From the sequence record MW286156.1: a stretch of 47,915 nucleotides of DNA; one strand, written 5' to 3'. The position numbers were made by a program, and so were the translations under genes. How positions within the stretch are numbered: the stretch's first letter is position 1; each line of letters starts with the position of its first letter. The DNA is from Escherichia phage vB_EcoS-BECP10. Below the pieces are notes generated by a model. That model was not told the DNA's origin and ran no database searches. It saw only the letters and a program-made list of their open reading frames with translations. Below are positions 40,609-47,816 of this stretch, piece by piece.

Positions 40609-42180
40609 TTACTTAACGCCAGCTAGCCTCATTAAGCGGGCTCTCGGATCGTCACTCAAGTTCAATTCACAGTTGATGGCCATTGTTGTCGTATCCACAA
40701 TGTCATCATGGGGATGAGAATCGTCAGCAGTGAACGCCGAGAACTCGGTTAATAGCGAGGTAAGCCATGGCGCAGAGTCAGGCAGAACTACGTTACCAGC
40801 TTTAATCTGTGGCAGTGCGCTCATCACCCTGGTTAACTTATCTGTATCTGGAACGAAAGGCTCGATAGGAGTTCGCATTACCCGACCCGCCGACTGGATA
40901 AGTCCTATTCCAGACGCTTTCTTCTCGATAATAACCTTGCGCAATATACCATCTGTCTTACTAGCTGCTCTATGCTTACTCTCAAAGTCCAGAAGAGTTT
41001 GCTCAAGTTCAGGTGCTTCCCATTTACCCCTTACCATATCCAGAAGATAAAGCCTGTTATCTTTGCGCCCCCATAGCTGGAATACTGAGTAGTCGCTATA
41101 ACTCTTAGTAGTCATGGCAGTATCAGCCGTAATGAAACGGTAGTCATACTTGACTGGCGGCCTGTTATTCTCATCGAGGCGAGCAAACCAATCTACGTTG
41201 ATCAGGTTTCCACCCAGAGCTACTGGAGATTGTTGGTACTGGCTTAGGAATGTGTACGGATCTGAGTCCCACATTGCCATCAAGTCATGCACAGATTCCT
41301 TCTGCGGGAAGTAGCTGTAATACTTAACACCATCTCGCTCGACGTACTCGGATGAAAGCACGTCCTTCTCGAACTGCTCACGAATCCAGTCAGGGAGTTC
41401 ATTCACATATTCTTCAGTGACCAGCGCCGGTATCTTCACTACATCAAAGTCGATACCCATACCACCAGAAGTCATGAACCACGTTGAATCCTGAGTATGA
41501 AGCCTTTGCTGAATTGACAGAATTGGCGTAGCTTTACCTTTAACGCTACTCGCCCTACGTGAGCGAATGGTGTTTTTGAGAAGAGTGTGCACGGCCTCTC
41601 GCCTGACTTTGCTGAACATATCATCCGCTTTGTCTACATCATCAAGCATCAAACAGCCGCTATAGTTATCTGTAATATATCCACCGCGAGCGCCTGTAAT
41701 CTGACCGCCAATTGCTTTTGATATTGATTCAAACTTAACCTTACCAGAATCATCAAGAACCTGAATCTCATCATCCTTACATGTGCCAAACTTGCAGGGC
41801 CACAACTCCTGGAATTCTGTCGATTTGATAAGGTCACGAACCCGTTTAGAGTTACGCTTCACGAGGCTATCTGAGAATGACAGGCTAAGATTGCGAACCT
41901 TCTTTAGTTTAAGCATTGAGTATACTGGGAAGTGAATGGATGTAATCTCGGTTTTTCCGGCCCCGGGAGCTACGTTAATGATTGTATCTCTGCGTTGACC
42001 GCTAATAACCTCATCGATGATTCTACAGAGGTACTTATGGTGCCAGTTAGGAATATAACGCTCAGATTGACTTATTTGAAACCACACCCTTAAGAAACCC
42101 TCGAAGCTATGAGTTGATAGTGCCTTTATAGCTAGCTTTTCTGGGTATGTTAAGTCTTCCCATACAATTATTTCACTCAT
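40609..42180 (-). CDS. Terminase large subunit
   Basis: Walker A-like INVAPGAGKTE, ATPase and nuclease-like regions; start taken at MSEIIVWE. Confidence 0.8.
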   Translation of the reverse strand: MSEIIVWEDLTYPEKLAIKALSTHSFEGFLRVWFQISQSERYIPNWHHKYLCRIIDEVISGQRRDTIINVAPGAGKTEITSIHFPVYSMLKLKKVRNLSLSFSDSLVKRNSKRVRDLIKSTEFQELWPCKFGTCKDDEIQVLDDSGKVKFESISKAIGGQITGARGGYITDNYSGCLMLDDVDKADDMFSKVRREAVHTLLKNTIRSRRASSVKGKATPILSIQQRLHTQDSTWFMTSGGMGIDFDVVKIPALVTEEYVNELPDWIREQFEKDVLSSEYVERDGVKYYSYFPQKESVHDLMAMWDSDPYTFLSQYQQSPVALGGNLINVDWFARLDENNRPPVKYDYRFITADTAMTTKSYSDYSVFQLWGRKDNRLYLLDMVRGKWEAPELEQTLLDFESKHRAASKTDGILRKVIIEKKASGIGLIQSAGRVMRTPIEPFVPDTDKLTRVMSALPQIKAGNVVLPDSAPWLTSLLTEFSAFTADDSHPHDDIVDTTTMAINCELNLSDDPRARLMRLAGVK

Positions 42181-42688
42181 GATTGCAGAACTCCCCATGT
42201 ATACTCTCCCTCATTGATGCCGCCACCTTTGCTGCTTCTTCTTTTTTCTTAAACCAACCTCCAAACATCATTTTTCCATTTATTTTCACATATGCAATAT
42301 ACTCATTCCTTCTCTTTGAGTAGCTAACACCTTTGTAGCCAGATTTATTATTGCTCATCATAGACTTATTCATTCCGTTTTGGCTAAGCGATGCATCCCT
42401 AAGATTAGAAATCCTATCGTCTGATGGGTCACGATTTATGTGGTCAACCGCGCCAACTGGCTCAAAGCCATAATACAAATAAAATGCAATCCTTGAGCTC
42501 TTGTATATCTTCCCTTGTATCTGTACTTGATATCGACCGCTAGCTTTGTGCAAAGTCCCAGCCTCGGATCCGATTATGGTTTTGCTACTTACTTTTGATG
42601 TCCACGTTAGCTTTCCCGTTTCAGGATTGTAACTCAGAATTCCTCTAAGAAAATCCAGAGGCGGCATAGGCTTCGCTCTATCTAACAT
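42173..42688 (-). CDS. HNH endonuclease with AP2 DNA-binding domain (homing-endonuclease-like)
   Basis: HNH motif VDHINRDPSDDRISNLR and AP2-like GYKGVSYSKRRNEYIAYVKINGK; between the terminase subunit genes. Confidence 0.7.
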   Translation of the reverse strand: MLDRAKPMPPLDFLRGILSYNPETGKLTWTSKVSSKTIIGSEAGTLHKASGRYQVQIQGKIYKSSRIAFYLYYGFEPVGAVDHINRDPSDDRISNLRDASLSQNGMNKSMMSNNKSGYKGVSYSKRRNEYIAYVKINGKMMFGGWFKKKEEAAKVAASMRESIHGEFCNHE

Positions 42689-42733
42689 AAAAAACCCCAC
42701 TCGTTTATTGAATGGGGTAATTATATCAACATA

Positions 42734-43249
42734 TCAAAGTTTATCAACTATTGATTCAAGCGCAGCCTTCATAGCTTCCTCATCGTTCACTACTGCATTG
42801 GAAGCATTGTTGATGTTAACCTCTTGCGGCTTATCGATGCCTAAGTCCTTGCCAATCAGTCCAGGGTTGACGATGTTGTTAACGCCAAGCTGATACTTCT
42901 GCTCAAAGATTACCGAATCCACAAACTCCATCACCTCATCAAATCCAGGCGAAGAGCGCCATTTACTGATGGCATTATGACCAACGCCGCAGAAAAGTTG
43001 GAATCCAGTTATCGTAAATATTCGTGGCTTATGAACAAGGTTTTCCGTTACAACACCCTGAAAGCTCGCCGTTTCAATGGCCTTAATCGCTTGCTCTTCA
43101 GCCCAGCTGAAATACCTTACAGCCATGTCGAATACCTGCTCGGGAGTGTATCTGTGGTTAATCTTAAGATTGGCAATGTCGCCATACTTCTTATTGTAAA
43201 GCTCCTTGAAGTTACCAATCTTCTGGTGAATTTTTTTCTCTTCTGACAT
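42734..43249 (-). CDS. Putative terminase small subunit (171 aa)
   Basis: Position immediately upstream of HNH and large terminase; RBS AGGAGGAATATC. Confidence 0.45.
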   Translation of the reverse strand: MSEEKKIHQKIGNFKELYNKKYGDIANLKINHRYTPEQVFDMAVRYFSWAEEQAIKAIETASFQGVVTENLVHKPRIFTITGFQLFCGVGHNAISKWRSSPGFDEVMEFVDSVIFEQKYQLGVNNIVNPGLIGKDLGIDKPQEVNINNASNAVVNDEEAMKAALESIVDKL

Positions 43250-43294
43250 TTGATATTCCTCCTGTTTTAAAAGTCATTGTACCATGACTATGGA

Positions 43295-43321
43295 CGAAAA
43301 AAAGCCCTCACAAGGAGGGCA
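43295..43321 (-). terminator. Intrinsic terminator
   Basis: Minus-strand hairpin GCCCTCC-TTGT-GAGGGC followed by TTTTTTTCG. Confidence 0.6.
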
Positions 43322-43348
43322 AAGTACTGCATTGCGAGATGACCAATC

Positions 43349-43534
43349 TCAAACGAGGGATACTTTATCAACGCTGACTTTGTGGACTGTCAGGTCAATC
43401 TTAAATGCTGCCTTTGCGGCTGCAACTGCTTCTTCAGGGCTTTTAGCAATGAACCTACCTTCGTAGGATTGCTGGCAAGATTTGCATTGCCGACCCATTA
43501 GGCGGGAAGTTAAACGGACTTCGTAGTTATTCAC
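43349..43534 (-). CDS. Hypothetical small protein (61 aa, GTG start)
   Basis: ORF track; GGAG 9 nt upstream of GTG; CKSC Cys pair; lies between the tRNA and a terminator. Confidence 0.3.
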   Translation of the reverse strand: MNNYEVRLTSRLMGRQCKSCQQSYEGRFIAKSPEEAVAAAKAAFKIDLTVHKVSVDKVSLV

Positions 43535-43550
43535 TAGGATGCTCCATGTT

Positions 43551-43626
43551 TGGTGTTCCGCACTGGACTCGAACCAGTAACTGAGACTTAGGAGGTCTCT
43601 GCGTTATCCTGTTACGCCAGCAGAAC
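43551..43626 (-). tRNA. tRNA-Arg (anticodon CCU, reads AGG), 76 nt with encoded CCA
   Basis: Manual cloverleaf: acceptor GTTCTGC/GCGGAAC, D-stem GCGT/ACGC with GG in loop, anticodon stem GAGAC/GTCTC with loop CTCCTAA, T-arm ACTGG-TTCGAGT-CCAGT, discriminator A, CCA. Confidence 0.8.
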
Positions 43627-43912
43627 TAGAATGAGTCCCGCTTACCGAATGCGGGGAGGTTTCACAATCCTCGGAATGTCAAGCCCGACTTACTGCATTG
43701 ATTGGTTCGCTTCGCGAAGTTCTCAATGTCTAACTGCGGTTTTATTTGCCTCGTATCTTTATCCAGCCCGGCTATCGGCTTGCATCTCCGCGATGCTCGT
43801 TACGGTCATTGCCGTCTACGTGGTTAATACTAACTACTTTTAACATTTTCATCAAGCCATGACGACGAAATAAATCCACGTCAACATGCCAGCCAGGAAC
43901 CAGATTGATAGC

Positions 43913-44107
43913 TCAGTCATAAAATACCTCAAAGTAACCAAACTCAATGTCAATGCCATCTTTAACCATCTCTATACACCCATCTTCTGACTCACATTTA
44001 ACCCAACCATATGCGGGTGATGACAAAATGCTGTAAGATTTACCAGTTTTGAACTTCTTATCATTGTAAGACACAATACATCTGACTTTCCCTAGTGATT
44101 TAGTCAT
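43913..44107 (-). CDS. Hypothetical early protein (64 aa)
   Basis: Internal Met of track ORF giving ATGA coupling with 44100..44339. Confidence 0.4.
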   Translation of the reverse strand: MTKSLGKVRCIVSYNDKKFKTGKSYSILSSPAYGWVKCESEDGCIEMVKDGIDIEFGYFEVFYD

Positions 44108-44339
44108 AAATCTGCTCCCCATCTTCACGCTTACCTACGCGACCAGCAAGATAGCCTGCAACCCAAACAAACTTCATCTTCTCGATGATTGTACTGACTG
44201 GGCTATGAAACTCACAGATAATCGCCTTCATGATGTCATTATCCTGCTTCTGCTTGCTTGTCAGCTTATCCACCGCCTCGTTAAGTTTCTTAGCTTGGGC
44301 GCGAACTGCATTAAATTGTGGTTGAGTAAGTCCGAACAT
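44100..44339 (-). CDS. Hypothetical early protein (79 aa)
   Basis: ORF track; RBS AAGAAGG. Confidence 0.5.
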   Translation of the reverse strand: MFGLTQPQFNAVRAQAKKLNEAVDKLTSKQKQDNDIMKAIICEFHSPVSTIIEKMKFVWVAGYLAGRVGKREDGEQIYD

Positions 44340-44341
44340 GA

Positions 44342-44476
44342 TTAAGCCTTCTTGTAAGATTGAATATCGCCACCTAGGACTGCCTGCTGTGACTTTGCCG
44401 CTTCATAGCTGTCATACATTCGTTTGTGCATTACGATATTGAACTTGCCAGTGTAGTACGTGTGAATCCATATCAT
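44342..44476 (-). CDS. Hypothetical small protein (44 aa)
   Basis: Hand-translated; fills the gap between flanking genes. Confidence 0.25.
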   Translation of the reverse strand: MIWIHTYYTGKFNIVMHKRMYDSYEAAKSQQAVLGGDIQSYKKA

Positions 44477-44479
44477 GGG

Positions 44480-44773
44480 TTATTCTCCAGCGATGTAAAA
44501 TTCAGCGTCGAGATAAAATGCAGGCTGAAACAATTCTCTCTCATCGTCATATTCATCATATCCAGTATATACGTAACCATTCCTAACCTGTTCCGCTTGA
44601 AGCTCACCATCACATACCCACAAGCAAACGAAGCTACCAATTTTAATTGCTTCATCAATAGATATGCGCCTCATTGTTTGTTTCTTACTCCCCATGTGAA
44701 TTGCTCGCTTGCCGTCACCACCTTCAGAATCGTTGGCTGCCAATAAGTTGCCAGTGAATACGTTAATCTTCAT
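44480..44773 (-). CDS. Hypothetical early protein (97 aa)
   Basis: ORF track. Confidence 0.5.
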   Translation of the reverse strand: MKINVFTGNLLAANDSEGGDGKRAIHMGSKKQTMRRISIDEAIKIGSFVCLWVCDGELQAEQVRNGYVYTGYDEYDDERELFQPAFYLDAEFYIAGE

Positions 44774-44775
44774 TT

Positions 44776-44898
44776 CTTCTCCTCGCGCTCATGCCACATG
44801 TTCATCAACTCAAAGTACGCCATTACTTCATCCCCATCTTTAGCCTCATCCATCATCTTTTTACACCATTCACTTGGCAACTCATCATATCCACACAT
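44776..44898 (-). CDS. Hypothetical small acidic protein (about 40 aa)
   Basis: Hand-translated; first ATG after module 17 with RBS GAGGAAAG. Confidence 0.3.
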
Positions 44899-44975
44899 TT
44901 AATCTTTCCTCGTCTCATTTCGATAAAGTAATGGTAACGCATCCTTGCGATGGATGTTTAGCAATTTGTGCTATT
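44899..44975 (-). promoter_or_regulatory. Promoter module 17 (minus): IR 44959-44973, hairpin CGCAAGGATGCG, leader variant TTTATCGAAATGAGACGAGG
   Basis: Minus-strand CAAATAGCACAAATTGCTAAAC then hairpin and box-2 variant. Confidence 0.6.
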
Positions 44976-45270
44976 TGTTGCTCCAGCTATCAAGATAATG
45001 TTTAGGTCCGTTGCGATACTTGTCTATAAGTTCCTGGACATGTGCACCCCTTTGATCATGGAATTCTATGGCCTTCTGAAGCGATACAATGGCCTCATTG
45101 ATGTCGGTAGGGTAATCCTTATGTCGTGTTCGAATGCCGCTGCACAGTACCTTTTTGATGGCATGCTGTAGTGCCGGGTCCGTTACGCCAAATGCTGCGA
45201 TGACGCGATATACATCAACCGTAGTCTTGGTGCCGTCCAGGCCAATAATCTCTTTTTCGTACTTACTCAT
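44971..45270 (-). CDS. Hypothetical early protein (99 aa)
   Basis: ORF track; RBS GAGGATTGAGAT. Confidence 0.5.
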   Translation of the reverse strand: MSKYEKEIIGLDGTKTTVDVYRVIAAFGVTDPALQHAIKKVLCSGIRTRHKDYPTDINEAIVSLQKAIEFHDQRGAHVQELIDKYRNGPKHYLDSWSNK

Positions 45271-47183: not shown

Positions 47184-47250
47184 GATGATTCCTCTCGTTG
47201 ATTGTTGTTTGTTGCCTCGTTTCGATGAAATGACTATAGCAAAGATTTAC
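47184..47250 (-). promoter_or_regulatory. Promoter module 19 (minus): TGCTATAGT plus leader TTTCATCGAAACGAGG but no upstream IR
   Basis: Extended -10-like TGCTATAGT and conserved leader; the AATAGCAC...GCTAAAG element is absent. Confidence 0.5.
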
Positions 47251-47816
47251 GTGTCTATAAATGTATTTTTTTGTTTATTTTAAAATTGATACGCTTTTTT
47301 CCCTGCATGCCGCATCGTTGCTGGGTGTGTACAGGCGTCTACGTGCGTCTACATATAGATGAGGGGGTTCTGGCTATATCCCCTTATATTTTCCTACAAG
47401 GTAGTACAATTCCTACAGTGTAGGAATAAAAATAGAAATTTAAGCAAACCAACCTATATAGTAGCGTACAGATGATACGCTATATATACATAATACTATA
47501 TATAATAATAATAATAGTCTAAGTACTTTATATATAAGGATATTTTAGTGTATATGGATTGTATCAAGGCGTATAAATTGTAAATGTGGATACGGTCGAC
47601 AATCGGTAGACATCGGACTACGCGTATATAAAAGAAGTCTCTCCGCGAGCGATAAAACCAACCAACTATTTGATCCAAACCTCCTTTCATTCAATCCATC
47701 CATCCATCATTGCCAAACTGGCAACAATCAATAAACCTGTTGCACTCGATGAAATATTGCTTTATGTGTAATAGTCATGCTAATCATCGCAATGCCTGCA
47801 ACAATCCATAAATCTG
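47251..47816. promoter_or_regulatory. ORF-free control region B between the two divergent early arms; palindromes, short tandem repeats, candidate origin or pac region
   Basis: Palindrome TTCCTACAGTGTAGGAA, direct GTCTAC repeats, (CCAT)4, DnaA-box-like TGTGGATAC, AT-rich block homologous to region A. Confidence 0.45.

Follow-up and report, generated by a model that had tools for sequence, protein, structure and literature searches.

Which elements occupy the DNA upstream of the tRNA-Arg(CCU) gene of Escherichia phage vB_EcoS-BECP10 (MW286156.1), where 286 bp are left unannotated in close relatives? The window, i.e. the whole analysed stretch of 47,915 nucleotides, belongs to a Rogunavirus, a T1-like phage of the Drexlerviridae subfamily Rogunavirinae. 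A megablast search of positions 43200-44400 against GenBank phages retrieved 34 records, all T1-like siphoviruses of the Rogunavirinae, with Escherichia phage C119 as the best match (99.6% identity). Transcription runs here along the minus strand, on which the small early open reading frames (ORFs) are followed by a 71-aa ORF (44128..43913), the leader region, tRNA-Arg, a 61-aa ORF (43534..43349), terS (43249..42734), an HNH ORF and terL. A first-pass annotation had described positions 43627-43912 as a structured gap lacking ORFs. The gap is indeed without annotation in the close relatives, but it is not free of ORFs and holds a conserved 22-codon gene (43920..43852). Taken as a whole, the region probably controls a small transcription unit that is complete in itself and supplies its 5' leader, with this 22-codon gene in front. 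Judged by comparison of sequences, the leader represents, in Rogunavirus, an RNA element of the Drexlerviridae that consists of a 5' motif (C)ACGUAGAC, the hairpins HpA and HpB with AACG between them, a middle part that varies with the lineage and a further hairpin, hp2.

The element was compared at two levels: within the Rogunavirinae, where the region was aligned from 13 genomes and one metagenome contig (L017), and across the family, for which 80 loci were fetched with a protein profile of phrog_2919, the family of the 61-aa protein. Across the family the same order recurs: a -35 hexamer (TTGAC/TTGCA), 17-18 nt, a -10 hexamer TAnnnT, 4 nt, the motif C(A/C)CGTA(G/A)AC, an ANAMGAG spacer that is missing in the Rogunavirinae, HpA (4-5 bp), AACG(N) and HpB (4-6 bp). 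In the window, HpA reads ACGG-CAATGA-CCGT (43815..43802, minus strand as for all features of the unit), the linker AACGA (43801..43797) and HpB GCATC-GCGGA-GATGC (43796..43782). Six different Watson-Crick stems of HpA occur across the lineages, along with a G.U form of the Sf12 type. HpB likewise has six stems, and identical loops (GCGGA, GCGATA) recur on different stems; GCGGA, for instance, is common to the window and the L078-type phages, whose stems differ. When dinucleotide-shuffled sequences were passed through the same anchored hairpin finder, both hairpins were reproduced in 0.1-1.6% of the trials per lineage.

For pair counts, a MAFFT alignment of all lineages was dropped, as its registers were offset, and a model seeded on two lineages was used instead. 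This covariance model, R1, was built from T1-like and L078-type leaders only, with no sequence of the Rogunavirinae. Searched with filters off against the 47.9-kb window, it gave one significant match (43822..43780, minus strand; 22.1 bits, E=1.1e-5; next match E=0.23), in which HpA and HpB were aligned as predicted and a 9-nt spacer was deleted. By this measure the leader is single-copy in the window. R1 further matched 48 of 70 family sources, including T1, TLS, RTP, Stevie, Webervirus and Braunvirinae. On the R1 alignment 98.7% of the cells were paired, versus 63% in shuffles, and eight of the nine pairs were changed on both sides. HpA contributed 97.5% paired cells with all four pairs changed on both sides, HpB 100% with four of five. 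Double-sided changes amounted to 103 cells, compared with 30.5 +/- 5.6 in shuffles (none of 500 reached the observed value), and the covariation score of 0.64 fell to 0.03-0.06 when the partners were slid by 1-3 columns.

The distal end of the leader behaves similarly. Hairpin hp2 (CCCGC-ATTCGGTAA-GCGGG, 43655..43637) lies 121 nt before the phrog_2919 gene and abuts a further hairpin, hp1 (GAGG-ATTGTGAAA-CCTC, 43672..43656). Family-wide, hp2 is a 5-bp stem with a loop ending in C(C/G)GUAA, for which six Watson-Crick stems and two G.U variants were found (37 of 81 loci). Within the Rogunavirinae, hp1 and hp2 together occur in two versions that differ only by mutually compensating G-to-C swaps; the compensated hp1, GAGC...GCTC, is present in phiEB49, Sf12, Opt79 and Sd1, and ACG-M12 carries GTCG-TAACAGG-CGAC at the same position. 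A pattern search of IMG/VR for hp1 plus hp2 yielded four more distant contigs, one of them Pantoea phage AAS23 (genus Sauletekiovirus). These AAS23-type contigs have both hairpins and no core, micro-gene or tRNA; between AAS23 and the Rogunavirinae, a 45-bp hairpin module (93-95% identity) is the only similarity detectable by blastn over 800 bp. In these contigs hp1 and hp2 belong to different versions, from which it follows that each stem has changed independently.

G.U intermediates were observed in HpA (Sf12-type), in hp2 (L054 and L057) and in the stem of the middle cassette described below. Together with the compensatory changes, they indicate selection on the pairing of one strand, and the G.U forms point to RNA rather than DNA. 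This bears directly on the proposal that the conserved block is a site in the DNA that serves packaging (pac), starts or primes replication, or acts as a recombination linker whose sequence is kept identical through frequent exchange between co-infecting phages. In favour of such a site, the block is close to terS, where many headful phages have pac, and the 650-bp module 43920-43266 is better conserved than its flanks and mosaic inside. However, pac of T1-type phages has been reported elsewhere, in a left-end untranslated region upstream of the small-ORF cluster and about 3 kb away (PMC7718038, PMC11447400). The block shows neither a change of GC skew nor iterons and is not repeated elsewhere, and its core evolves more slowly than the synonymous sites of the same module. 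We consider a DNA-level site extremely improbable, and the packaging or replication site suggested in the first-pass annotation finds no backing here.

Where would the transcript carrying these hairpins begin? A putative sigma-70-type promoter lies at 43855..43827 (-35 TTGATG, 43855..43850; 17-nt spacer; -10 TAGTAT, 43832..43827) and is conserved across subfamilies. In the Rogunavirinae relatives the -35 hexamer is TTGACG, and the spacer is constant in length and variable in sequence. Family-wide the -10 keeps TAnnnT and the -35 keeps TTGAC/TTGCA, 17-18 nt apart; the -35, the 17-nt spacing, the TAnnnT -10 and the CNCGTAGAC motif stand at fixed offsets in at least five lineages. Four nucleotides after the -10 begins the motif CACGTAGAC (43822..43814). 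Its generalized form C(A/C)CGTA(G/A)AC occupies the same offset from the -10 in Rogunavirinae, T1-like phages, Braunvirinae, Webervirus and others and was present within one mismatch in 50 of 80 loci. The window arrangement TAGTAT-TAAC-CACGTAGAC (43832..43814) is that of T1 (where the motif reads CCCGTAGAC), Braunvirinae, Webervirus and the L050/L078/L092-type phages. The position of the motif suggests that it is likely the 5' end of the transcript, with +1 at about 43821. The gap would thus hold the promoter of the tRNA, as had been surmised, though not at the TTGACA that the first-pass annotation had singled out. That hexamer does exist (43683..43678), but relatives have TTGACC or CGGACC in its place, and no -10 accompanies it.

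The sequence ACGTAGAC is found four times on the minus strand of the window (47344, 45457, 43821 and 27563) and not on the plus strand, with about 0.7 expected per strand. The other copies were rejected as further elements, two lying inside genes without promoter context and one being intergenic with a different spacing. A second exact CACGTAGAC is located at 47337-47352 (minus strand), in a tandem GTAGACGC-ACGTAGACGC within the intergenic region 47184-47495 that heads the small-ORF cluster. This region also contains AAACGAGGCAAC, similar to the ANACGAGGC spacer of other leaders; R1 gave no significant score there (E=7.7). By analogy with T1 and SU57, region 47184-47495 may hold the early promoter or pac site. 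No relevant literature was found on the motif or on transcription start sites of the Drexlerviridae.

From about 43821 to 43627, next to the 5' end of the tRNA, the leader would measure about 195 nt. HpB is followed by a nearly invariant segment specific to the Rogunavirinae (AAGCCGATAGCCGGGCTGGATAAAGATACGAGGCAAATA, 43781..43743), which includes a candidate hairpin AGCC-GATAGCCG-GGCT (43780..43765). Next comes a replaceable middle cassette (43742..43673), present among the relatives in three unrelated versions. The window has version A, with a hairpin CATTGA...TCAATG (43728..43696) whose outer stem is kept via G.U intermediates in AHP42 and L017. The 10-bp palindrome CTTCGCGAAG, pointed out by the first-pass annotation, is present at 43710-43719, but it lies in this cassette and is altered or absent in most relatives. 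The hairpin CCCGC...GCGGG of the same annotation is hp2, and it ends at 43655 instead of 43657. In cassette version B (Rogue1, L001; e4/1c, L014; JK06, L015) the 5' half of hp1 is tandemly duplicated as CCGGACCTT(T)CCGAGGATTG. Part of hp1, GAGGATTG, matches the ribosome-binding site (RBS) GAGGATTGCATAATG of the 53-aa ORF of T1, and from this match hp1 may be a fossil RBS.

The core of about 90 nt after the -10 contains ten variable sites in the 13 genomes. Its divergence from the window is 3.0% versus 9.1% at third-codon positions of the two flanking genes (Fisher p ~3e-6, approximate). A protein-coding origin of this conservation was rejected, as nine of ten substitutions are non-synonymous in the only persistently open frame and no coding signature appeared on either strand; core-frame peptides had no match in Pfam. 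An HNH-endonuclease relic (frame SINHVDGNDRN) was discarded too, with no Pfam match at E<=10 and with DGND changed to DVNY in e4/1c and D to G in Sf12. Sense or antisense ORFs in the gap, including an annotated 40-aa ORF of Rogue1 and a plus-strand coding sequence of Opt-79, are not kept from one cassette type to another, the antisense ones differing in start and length, and were not retained. A 7-codon mini-ORF (GTG AAA CCT CCC CGC ATT CGG TAA, 43641-43664, minus strand) extends from the hp1 loop to the hp2 loop, where its stop is the conserved UAA. It was rejected as a gene because its peptide varies (KPPRIR, KARRIP, KPRRIP), ACG-M12 and T1 lack it, and its Shine-Dalgarno spacing is too short.

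The tRNA itself is ordinary and already annotated at this site in several relatives; what is new is the micro-gene and a promoter-leader element not catalogued in Rfam. As the first-pass annotation had it, a tRNA with anticodon CCU lies at 43551..43626 on the minus strand. It is the sole tRNA found in the window by ARAGORN (anticodon cct at position 35), has an encoded CCA and matches the Rfam tRNA model RF00005 over its full length (1-71; 57.6 bits against a gathering score of 29, E=3e-11). The rationale of AGG decoding also holds, as AGG is frequent in the genome: it makes up about 12 per 1000 codons (ORFs of at least 100 aa, a crude ORF set) and, of the arginine codons, 31 of 63 in a 1026-aa ORF, 22 of 55 in a 1141-aa ORF and 9 of 32 in terL.

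In the relatives, the position of the tRNA is occupied by a variety of insertions. It is empty in AAS23 and Webervirus and holds a 53-aa ORF in T1, tRNA-Arg(UCU) in Braunvirinae and RTP, and tRNA-Arg(CCU) in Rogunavirinae. Sd1 has tRNA-Trp plus tRNA-Arg, phiEB49 tRNA-Arg plus tRNA-Val, and AHP42 an extra ORF. As relatives carry nothing, a small ORF or one or more tRNAs at this place, the tRNA is a passenger inserted between a pre-existing leader and the phrog_2919 gene, at a recurrent insertion slot; and as the same leader is found in relatives with no tRNA or with an ORF in the slot, the leader is older than the tRNA. The tRNA-Arg(UCU) of RTP and Braunvirinae (L038, L053 and L081) occupies the same slot and is 75-78% identical to that of the window (63% for ACG-M12). 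This degree of identity suggests, at the level of sequence, a single ancestral insertion followed by a change of anticodon. In Opt-79, ARAGORN reported just 3' of tRNA-Arg a 93-nt 'tRNA-???' with a 2-base anticodon (L008 1060-1152), possibly a damaged tRNA in the same slot.

Given such a hotspot of tRNA insertion (Sd1, phiEB49), hp1 and hp2 might themselves be remains of a decayed second tRNA, with hp1 as anticodon arm (loop UU-GUG-AA) and hp2 as T arm. Indeed, hp1 can be drawn with a 7-nt loop that has a U33-like residue and GUG, and the flanking AATG(C)AGT...ACTCATT could pair. However, ARAGORN relaxed to 80% found only tRNA-Arg in 14 sequences, and a search of the 229 nt 43622-43850 gave no Rfam tRNA match at E<=10. 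The supposed acceptor and D arms are not conserved, and hp2 is present in phages without any tRNA. A decayed tRNA or tRNA-like element is largely refuted by the relaxed ARAGORN and Rfam searches, and its probability is practically negligible.

The leader belongs with the downstream 61-aa gene, not with the tRNA. This gene (43534..43349; GTG start at 43534, GGAG Shine-Dalgarno 7 nt upstream) affiliates with phrog_2919 (E=8e-29). By tblastn, phrog_2919 was detected in 802 phage records, essentially all of them Drexlerviridae, and always just before terS. The proteins align without gaps at 33-41% identity across genera, with conserved MG, CxxC, Q and H; the AAS23-type protein shares 33-36% with that of the window, again without gaps. 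The records of C119, AHP42, Sd1, Sf12 and phiEB49 use an internal ATG for this gene (49 aa), and that of UDF157lw omits it. The design recurs in other genera. T1 has it in full: the TGA of the upstream gene inside the -35, the leader, the 53-aa ORF in the tRNA slot and then phrog_2919. ACG-M12 (Braunvirinae) has a 274-bp gap, tRNA-Arg(UCU) and the phrog_2919 gene, PhiKpNIH-2 (Webervirus) a 131-bp gap before the gene and no tRNA, while in Stevie (Tlsvirus) ORFs are packed against it.

The constant company of leader and gene across the family raises the question of whether a phage protein uses the hairpins as its operator. The simplest candidate is the phrog_2919 product, which would bind the loops GCGGA and C[C/G]GUAA and autoregulate the unit. 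Loops conserved in sequence on variable stems would suit a binding site, and in AAS23-type phages the hairpins stand 8 nt before the RBS of the 61-aa gene, with hp2 that far from the Shine-Dalgarno sequence in AAS23. In the protein a CxxC...H pattern is conserved, and small ribosomal RNA-binding proteins head the list of its weak fold matches. These matches are not significant (best E ~0.1), though, and come from an AlphaFold2 model of moderate confidence (predicted local distance difference test, pLDDT, 70; beta-beta-alpha-beta); in the PDB no significant match was found, so the fold gives no functional lead. Neither Pfam nor PHROGs assigns a nucleic-acid-binding domain to phrog_2919, and in the tRNA-bearing phages the hairpins would be cut from the mRNA. 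The translational operators of other phages, such as the leaders of T4 regA (bound by RegA) and gene 32 (bound by gp32) and the coat-protein hairpin of MS2, are likewise small hairpins with conserved loops and variable stems in the 5' untranslated region (UTR) of a small conserved phage gene. They differ from the present case in that here no binding protein is known and processing would part hairpins and mRNA in tRNA-bearing phages. We regard an operator as decidedly unlikely.

Downstream, the unit ends in an intrinsic terminator (GCCCTCCTTGTGAGGGC plus T7, 43320..43297; hairpin 43320..43304). Of 75 family loci, 53 have a terminator-like hairpin behind the phrog_2919 gene or behind one further ORF. 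In the window, an extended -10 promoter TGGTACAAT (43284..43276) separates the terminator from the RBS of terS, and in 37 of the 53 loci a TGnTAnnnT follows the terminator at a distance of no more than about 20 nt. With a terminator after phrog_2919 and a separate promoter for terS, the unit is self-contained and terS has no need of read-through. Beyond terS, a 175-aa HNH/AP2-type ORF (42173-42747, minus strand) separates it from terL and looks like a mobile homing-endonuclease insertion. A separate promoter of near-consensus sequence (TTGATA-16-TATAAT with TG, 42747..42720) belongs to the ORF, just upstream of which there is also a hairpin with a T-run (42718..42694). In C119, Rogue1 and Sf12, terL follows terS directly, and in UDF157lw and phiEB49 an ORF stands between them.

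This arrangement also bears on whether the leader could be an antiterminator. HK022 put RNA is a cis-acting, factor-independent antiterminator with long bulged helices, and the leader would, in the same manner, let the host polymerase pass the terminator 43320..43304 and later ones into the terminase and late genes. Like put, HpA and HpB are two adjacent, structure-conserved stem-loops just 3' of a host-polymerase promoter in a phage without its own polymerase. The terminator between the unit and terS is conserved, and a co-transcriptional role would be compatible with later removal of the leader by RNase P. The family has neither a polymerase nor a sigma factor of its own, nor a known antiterminator (PMC11447400, PMC7718038). 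Yet terS has its extended -10 promoter after the terminator in those 37 of 53 loci, and read-through would not be needed. The stems (4-6 bp) are much shorter than those of put RNAs, sequence similarity is lacking, and no Rfam family matched, so that the likeness amounts to a resemblance only. We judge put-type antitermination very unlikely. A lambda-type nut boxA, GCTCTT(T)A, was also sought by direct reading, and no GCTCTT occurs in the window leader 43821..43627. The leaders of the Braunvirinae alone contain a boxA-like TGCTCATTAA. In ACG-M12 (L038 ~450-470) and other Braunvirinae, TTGCTCATTAAG, which is absent from the window leader, lies inside a long third hairpin and resembles the boxA antitermination consensus TGCTCTTTAA.

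The late control region of lambda, PR'-qut-6S RNA-tR', offers another parallel. There too, the packaging and late genes are immediately preceded by a promoter whose initially transcribed sequence is conserved, by some 190 nt of untranslated RNA and by a terminator. In contrast to lambda, a Q-like gene was not identified, a tRNA and a protein gene stand before the terminator where lambda has the short RNA directly, and homology is lacking. Among conserved non-coding elements of the Drexlerviridae themselves, TLS and T1-like phages have 21-nt intergenic repeats aaATAGCACnnnTTGnTAAAA with 18-21 copies per genome (PMC11447400). The leader shares with them the orientation with transcription and the position upstream of genes, but it differs in sequence, is single-copy and is structured.

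Upstream of the leader, the 22-codon gene MTELSIWFLAGMLTWIYFVVMA (43920..43852, minus strand) is conserved in 13 of 13 Rogunavirinae copies and in contig L017, and is annotated in no record. Its ATG overlaps the end of the 71-aa ORF (ATGA; ATGACTGA), and its TGA stop sits inside the -35 hexamer. A Shine-Dalgarno sequence (GAGG/GGAG) is found 6-9 nt upstream in every version, despite differing upstream genes. Eleven codons vary in the 13 genomes, eight of them by synonymous changes only and three conservatively (F/L, G/A, M/I), which is the signature of a translated gene, and on this pattern of substitutions we take the ORF to be one. Its product is probably a hydrophobic membrane peptide with a single predicted helix. 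The preceding 71-aa ORF (43913-44128, minus strand) affiliates with phrog_10885 (E=2e-47). It has an apparent counterpart in T1 (L046 291-494) with a similar ending (FEIND* versus FEVFYD*) and with its stop inside the -35, so synteny extends to both sides of the leader.

How, then, might the unit work? Host RNA polymerase would start at the promoter 43855..43827, at about 43821, and synthesize a transcript of the ~195-nt leader, tRNA-Arg(CCU) and the phrog_2919 gene that would stop at the terminator 43320..43304; terS would then be transcribed from its own extended -10 promoter. Cleavage by RNase P at the 5' end of the tRNA, along with 3' trimming, would release the tRNA and a free leader, and the tRNA would serve the many AGG codons of the late genes. 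The leader would act in cis, as an RNA that determines how strongly or when the unit is expressed. It would do so while the transcript is made or shortly afterwards, by way of pausing, of stability or of protecting a long untranslated RNA. A cis-acting regulatory RNA is our best guess for its role, because the element lies at the very start of the transcript, occurs once and invariably precedes the same gene. Comparable mixed tRNA-mRNA units are the thrU-tyrU-glyT-thrT-tufB operon of E. coli and the T4 tRNA cluster with the stable RNAs C and D. In these as well, a longer transcript combines a tRNA with a protein gene and other RNA, and RNase P and 3' trimming set the tRNA free, as they would here, and the tRNA supplements the decoding of rare codons for the phage. 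Unlike those units, the present one has no homology to them in sequence or structure, and its leader is older than the tRNA and lies upstream of it, not within a cluster.

Several points weigh against this reading. The promoter activity, the position of +1 and the processing are all inferred from sequence; the -35 of the window is weakened (TTGATG), and a simple promoter scan did not list the site. Folding energies of the region are no better than those of shuffled sequences (z-scores of -0.2 to -1.7, not significant), and the hairpins have only 4-6 bp. The term 'structured' in the first-pass annotation thus has no thermodynamic support, although specific hairpins are supported by covariation, and the case for structure rests on comparison, not on stability. 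R1 left 22 of 70 sources without a match at E<=0.01, and the window copy is lost under default filters. The alignment used for pair counts was fitted to the structure of the model, which inflates pairing, although the margin is nonetheless large, and the Fisher test on the core treats related sequences as independent. Lastly, a purely cis-acting role on the translation of phrog_2919 is hard to sustain in the tRNA-bearing phages if RNase P removes the leader.

The last point deserves attention, as the retention of the leader where a tRNA would cut it off the mRNA favours a co-transcriptional or a trans-acting role. The small RNA proposed in the first-pass annotation is possible because a cut by RNase P at the 5' end of the tRNA would release the leader of about 195 nt. 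As a stand-alone, stable RNA, the fragment would act in trans, for example by pairing with mRNAs of the host or the phage or through the sequestration of a protein, and in its origin it would resemble the stable RNAs C and D of T4. That the leader is conserved even in phages with a tRNA between it and the gene (Rogunavirinae, Braunvirinae, RTP) is in line with such a role, as is the conservation in sequence, beyond structure, of its 5' end, linker and loops; the Rogunavirinae moreover added a nearly invariant segment of 40 nt without counterpart elsewhere. In most of the family (T1, Webervirus, AAS23, TLS), however, the element is the 5' UTR of an mRNA without a processing site. No target or partner was identified, no homologue is present in E. 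coli, and the leader has no terminator of its own. A trans-acting RNA is on these grounds an unlikely explanation, and the cis-acting leader of a small unit is retained.

Rfam 15 (4227 models), searched with 42500-45000 and 43622-43850 of the window at E<=10, gave only the tRNA and chance-level matches; the scan for a small RNA in the supposedly ORF-free stretch hence produced no family beyond tRNA. On seven further loci (T1, Braunvirinae, Webervirus, L078-type, TLS, ACG-M12 and AAS23) only tRNAs were found, with weak matches on terminators. In exact-pattern scans for further copies, IMG/VR gave known phages only for the core, metagenomes one contig, and genomes two chance 21-mers in unrelated metagenome-assembled genomes. 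A host origin of the core block or the tRNA received no support from blastn, which had no match in 5,426 E. coli genomes.

For the annotation of these phages, the analysis adds a 22-codon gene that had been missed and places the start of the phrog_2919 gene at a GTG; if the leader turns out to be no more than an ordinary 5' UTR, the gain is a modest improvement of this kind. A leader conserved with compensatory changes from T1 to Webervirus is, at any rate, absent from Rfam. That the tRNA-Arg is cargo in a pre-existing slot of the leader explains why tRNAs of the Drexlerviridae, when present, always sit there. A more far-reaching interpretation, tentative and somewhat unlikely in our estimation, is that HpA, HpB, hp2 and the conserved 5' end constitute a previously undescribed class of Drexlerviridae RNA, which would be active in its own right, beyond a passive 5' UTR, by reprogramming the host polymerase during its own synthesis or as a processed trans-acting small RNA, and would double as a docking site for swapped tRNAs and small genes. 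The T1-like phages, a classical family and a very common one, are widely isolated for therapeutic use against E. coli, Klebsiella and Shigella, and how they time gene expression with the host polymerase alone is listed as an open question (PMC11447400). The element provides a concrete, single-copy and mutable promoter with a structured leader directly upstream of the packaging genes. If the interpretation is true, this would be the first regulatory RNA known from T1-like phages, which have neither their own polymerase nor their own sigma factor with which to time their genes.

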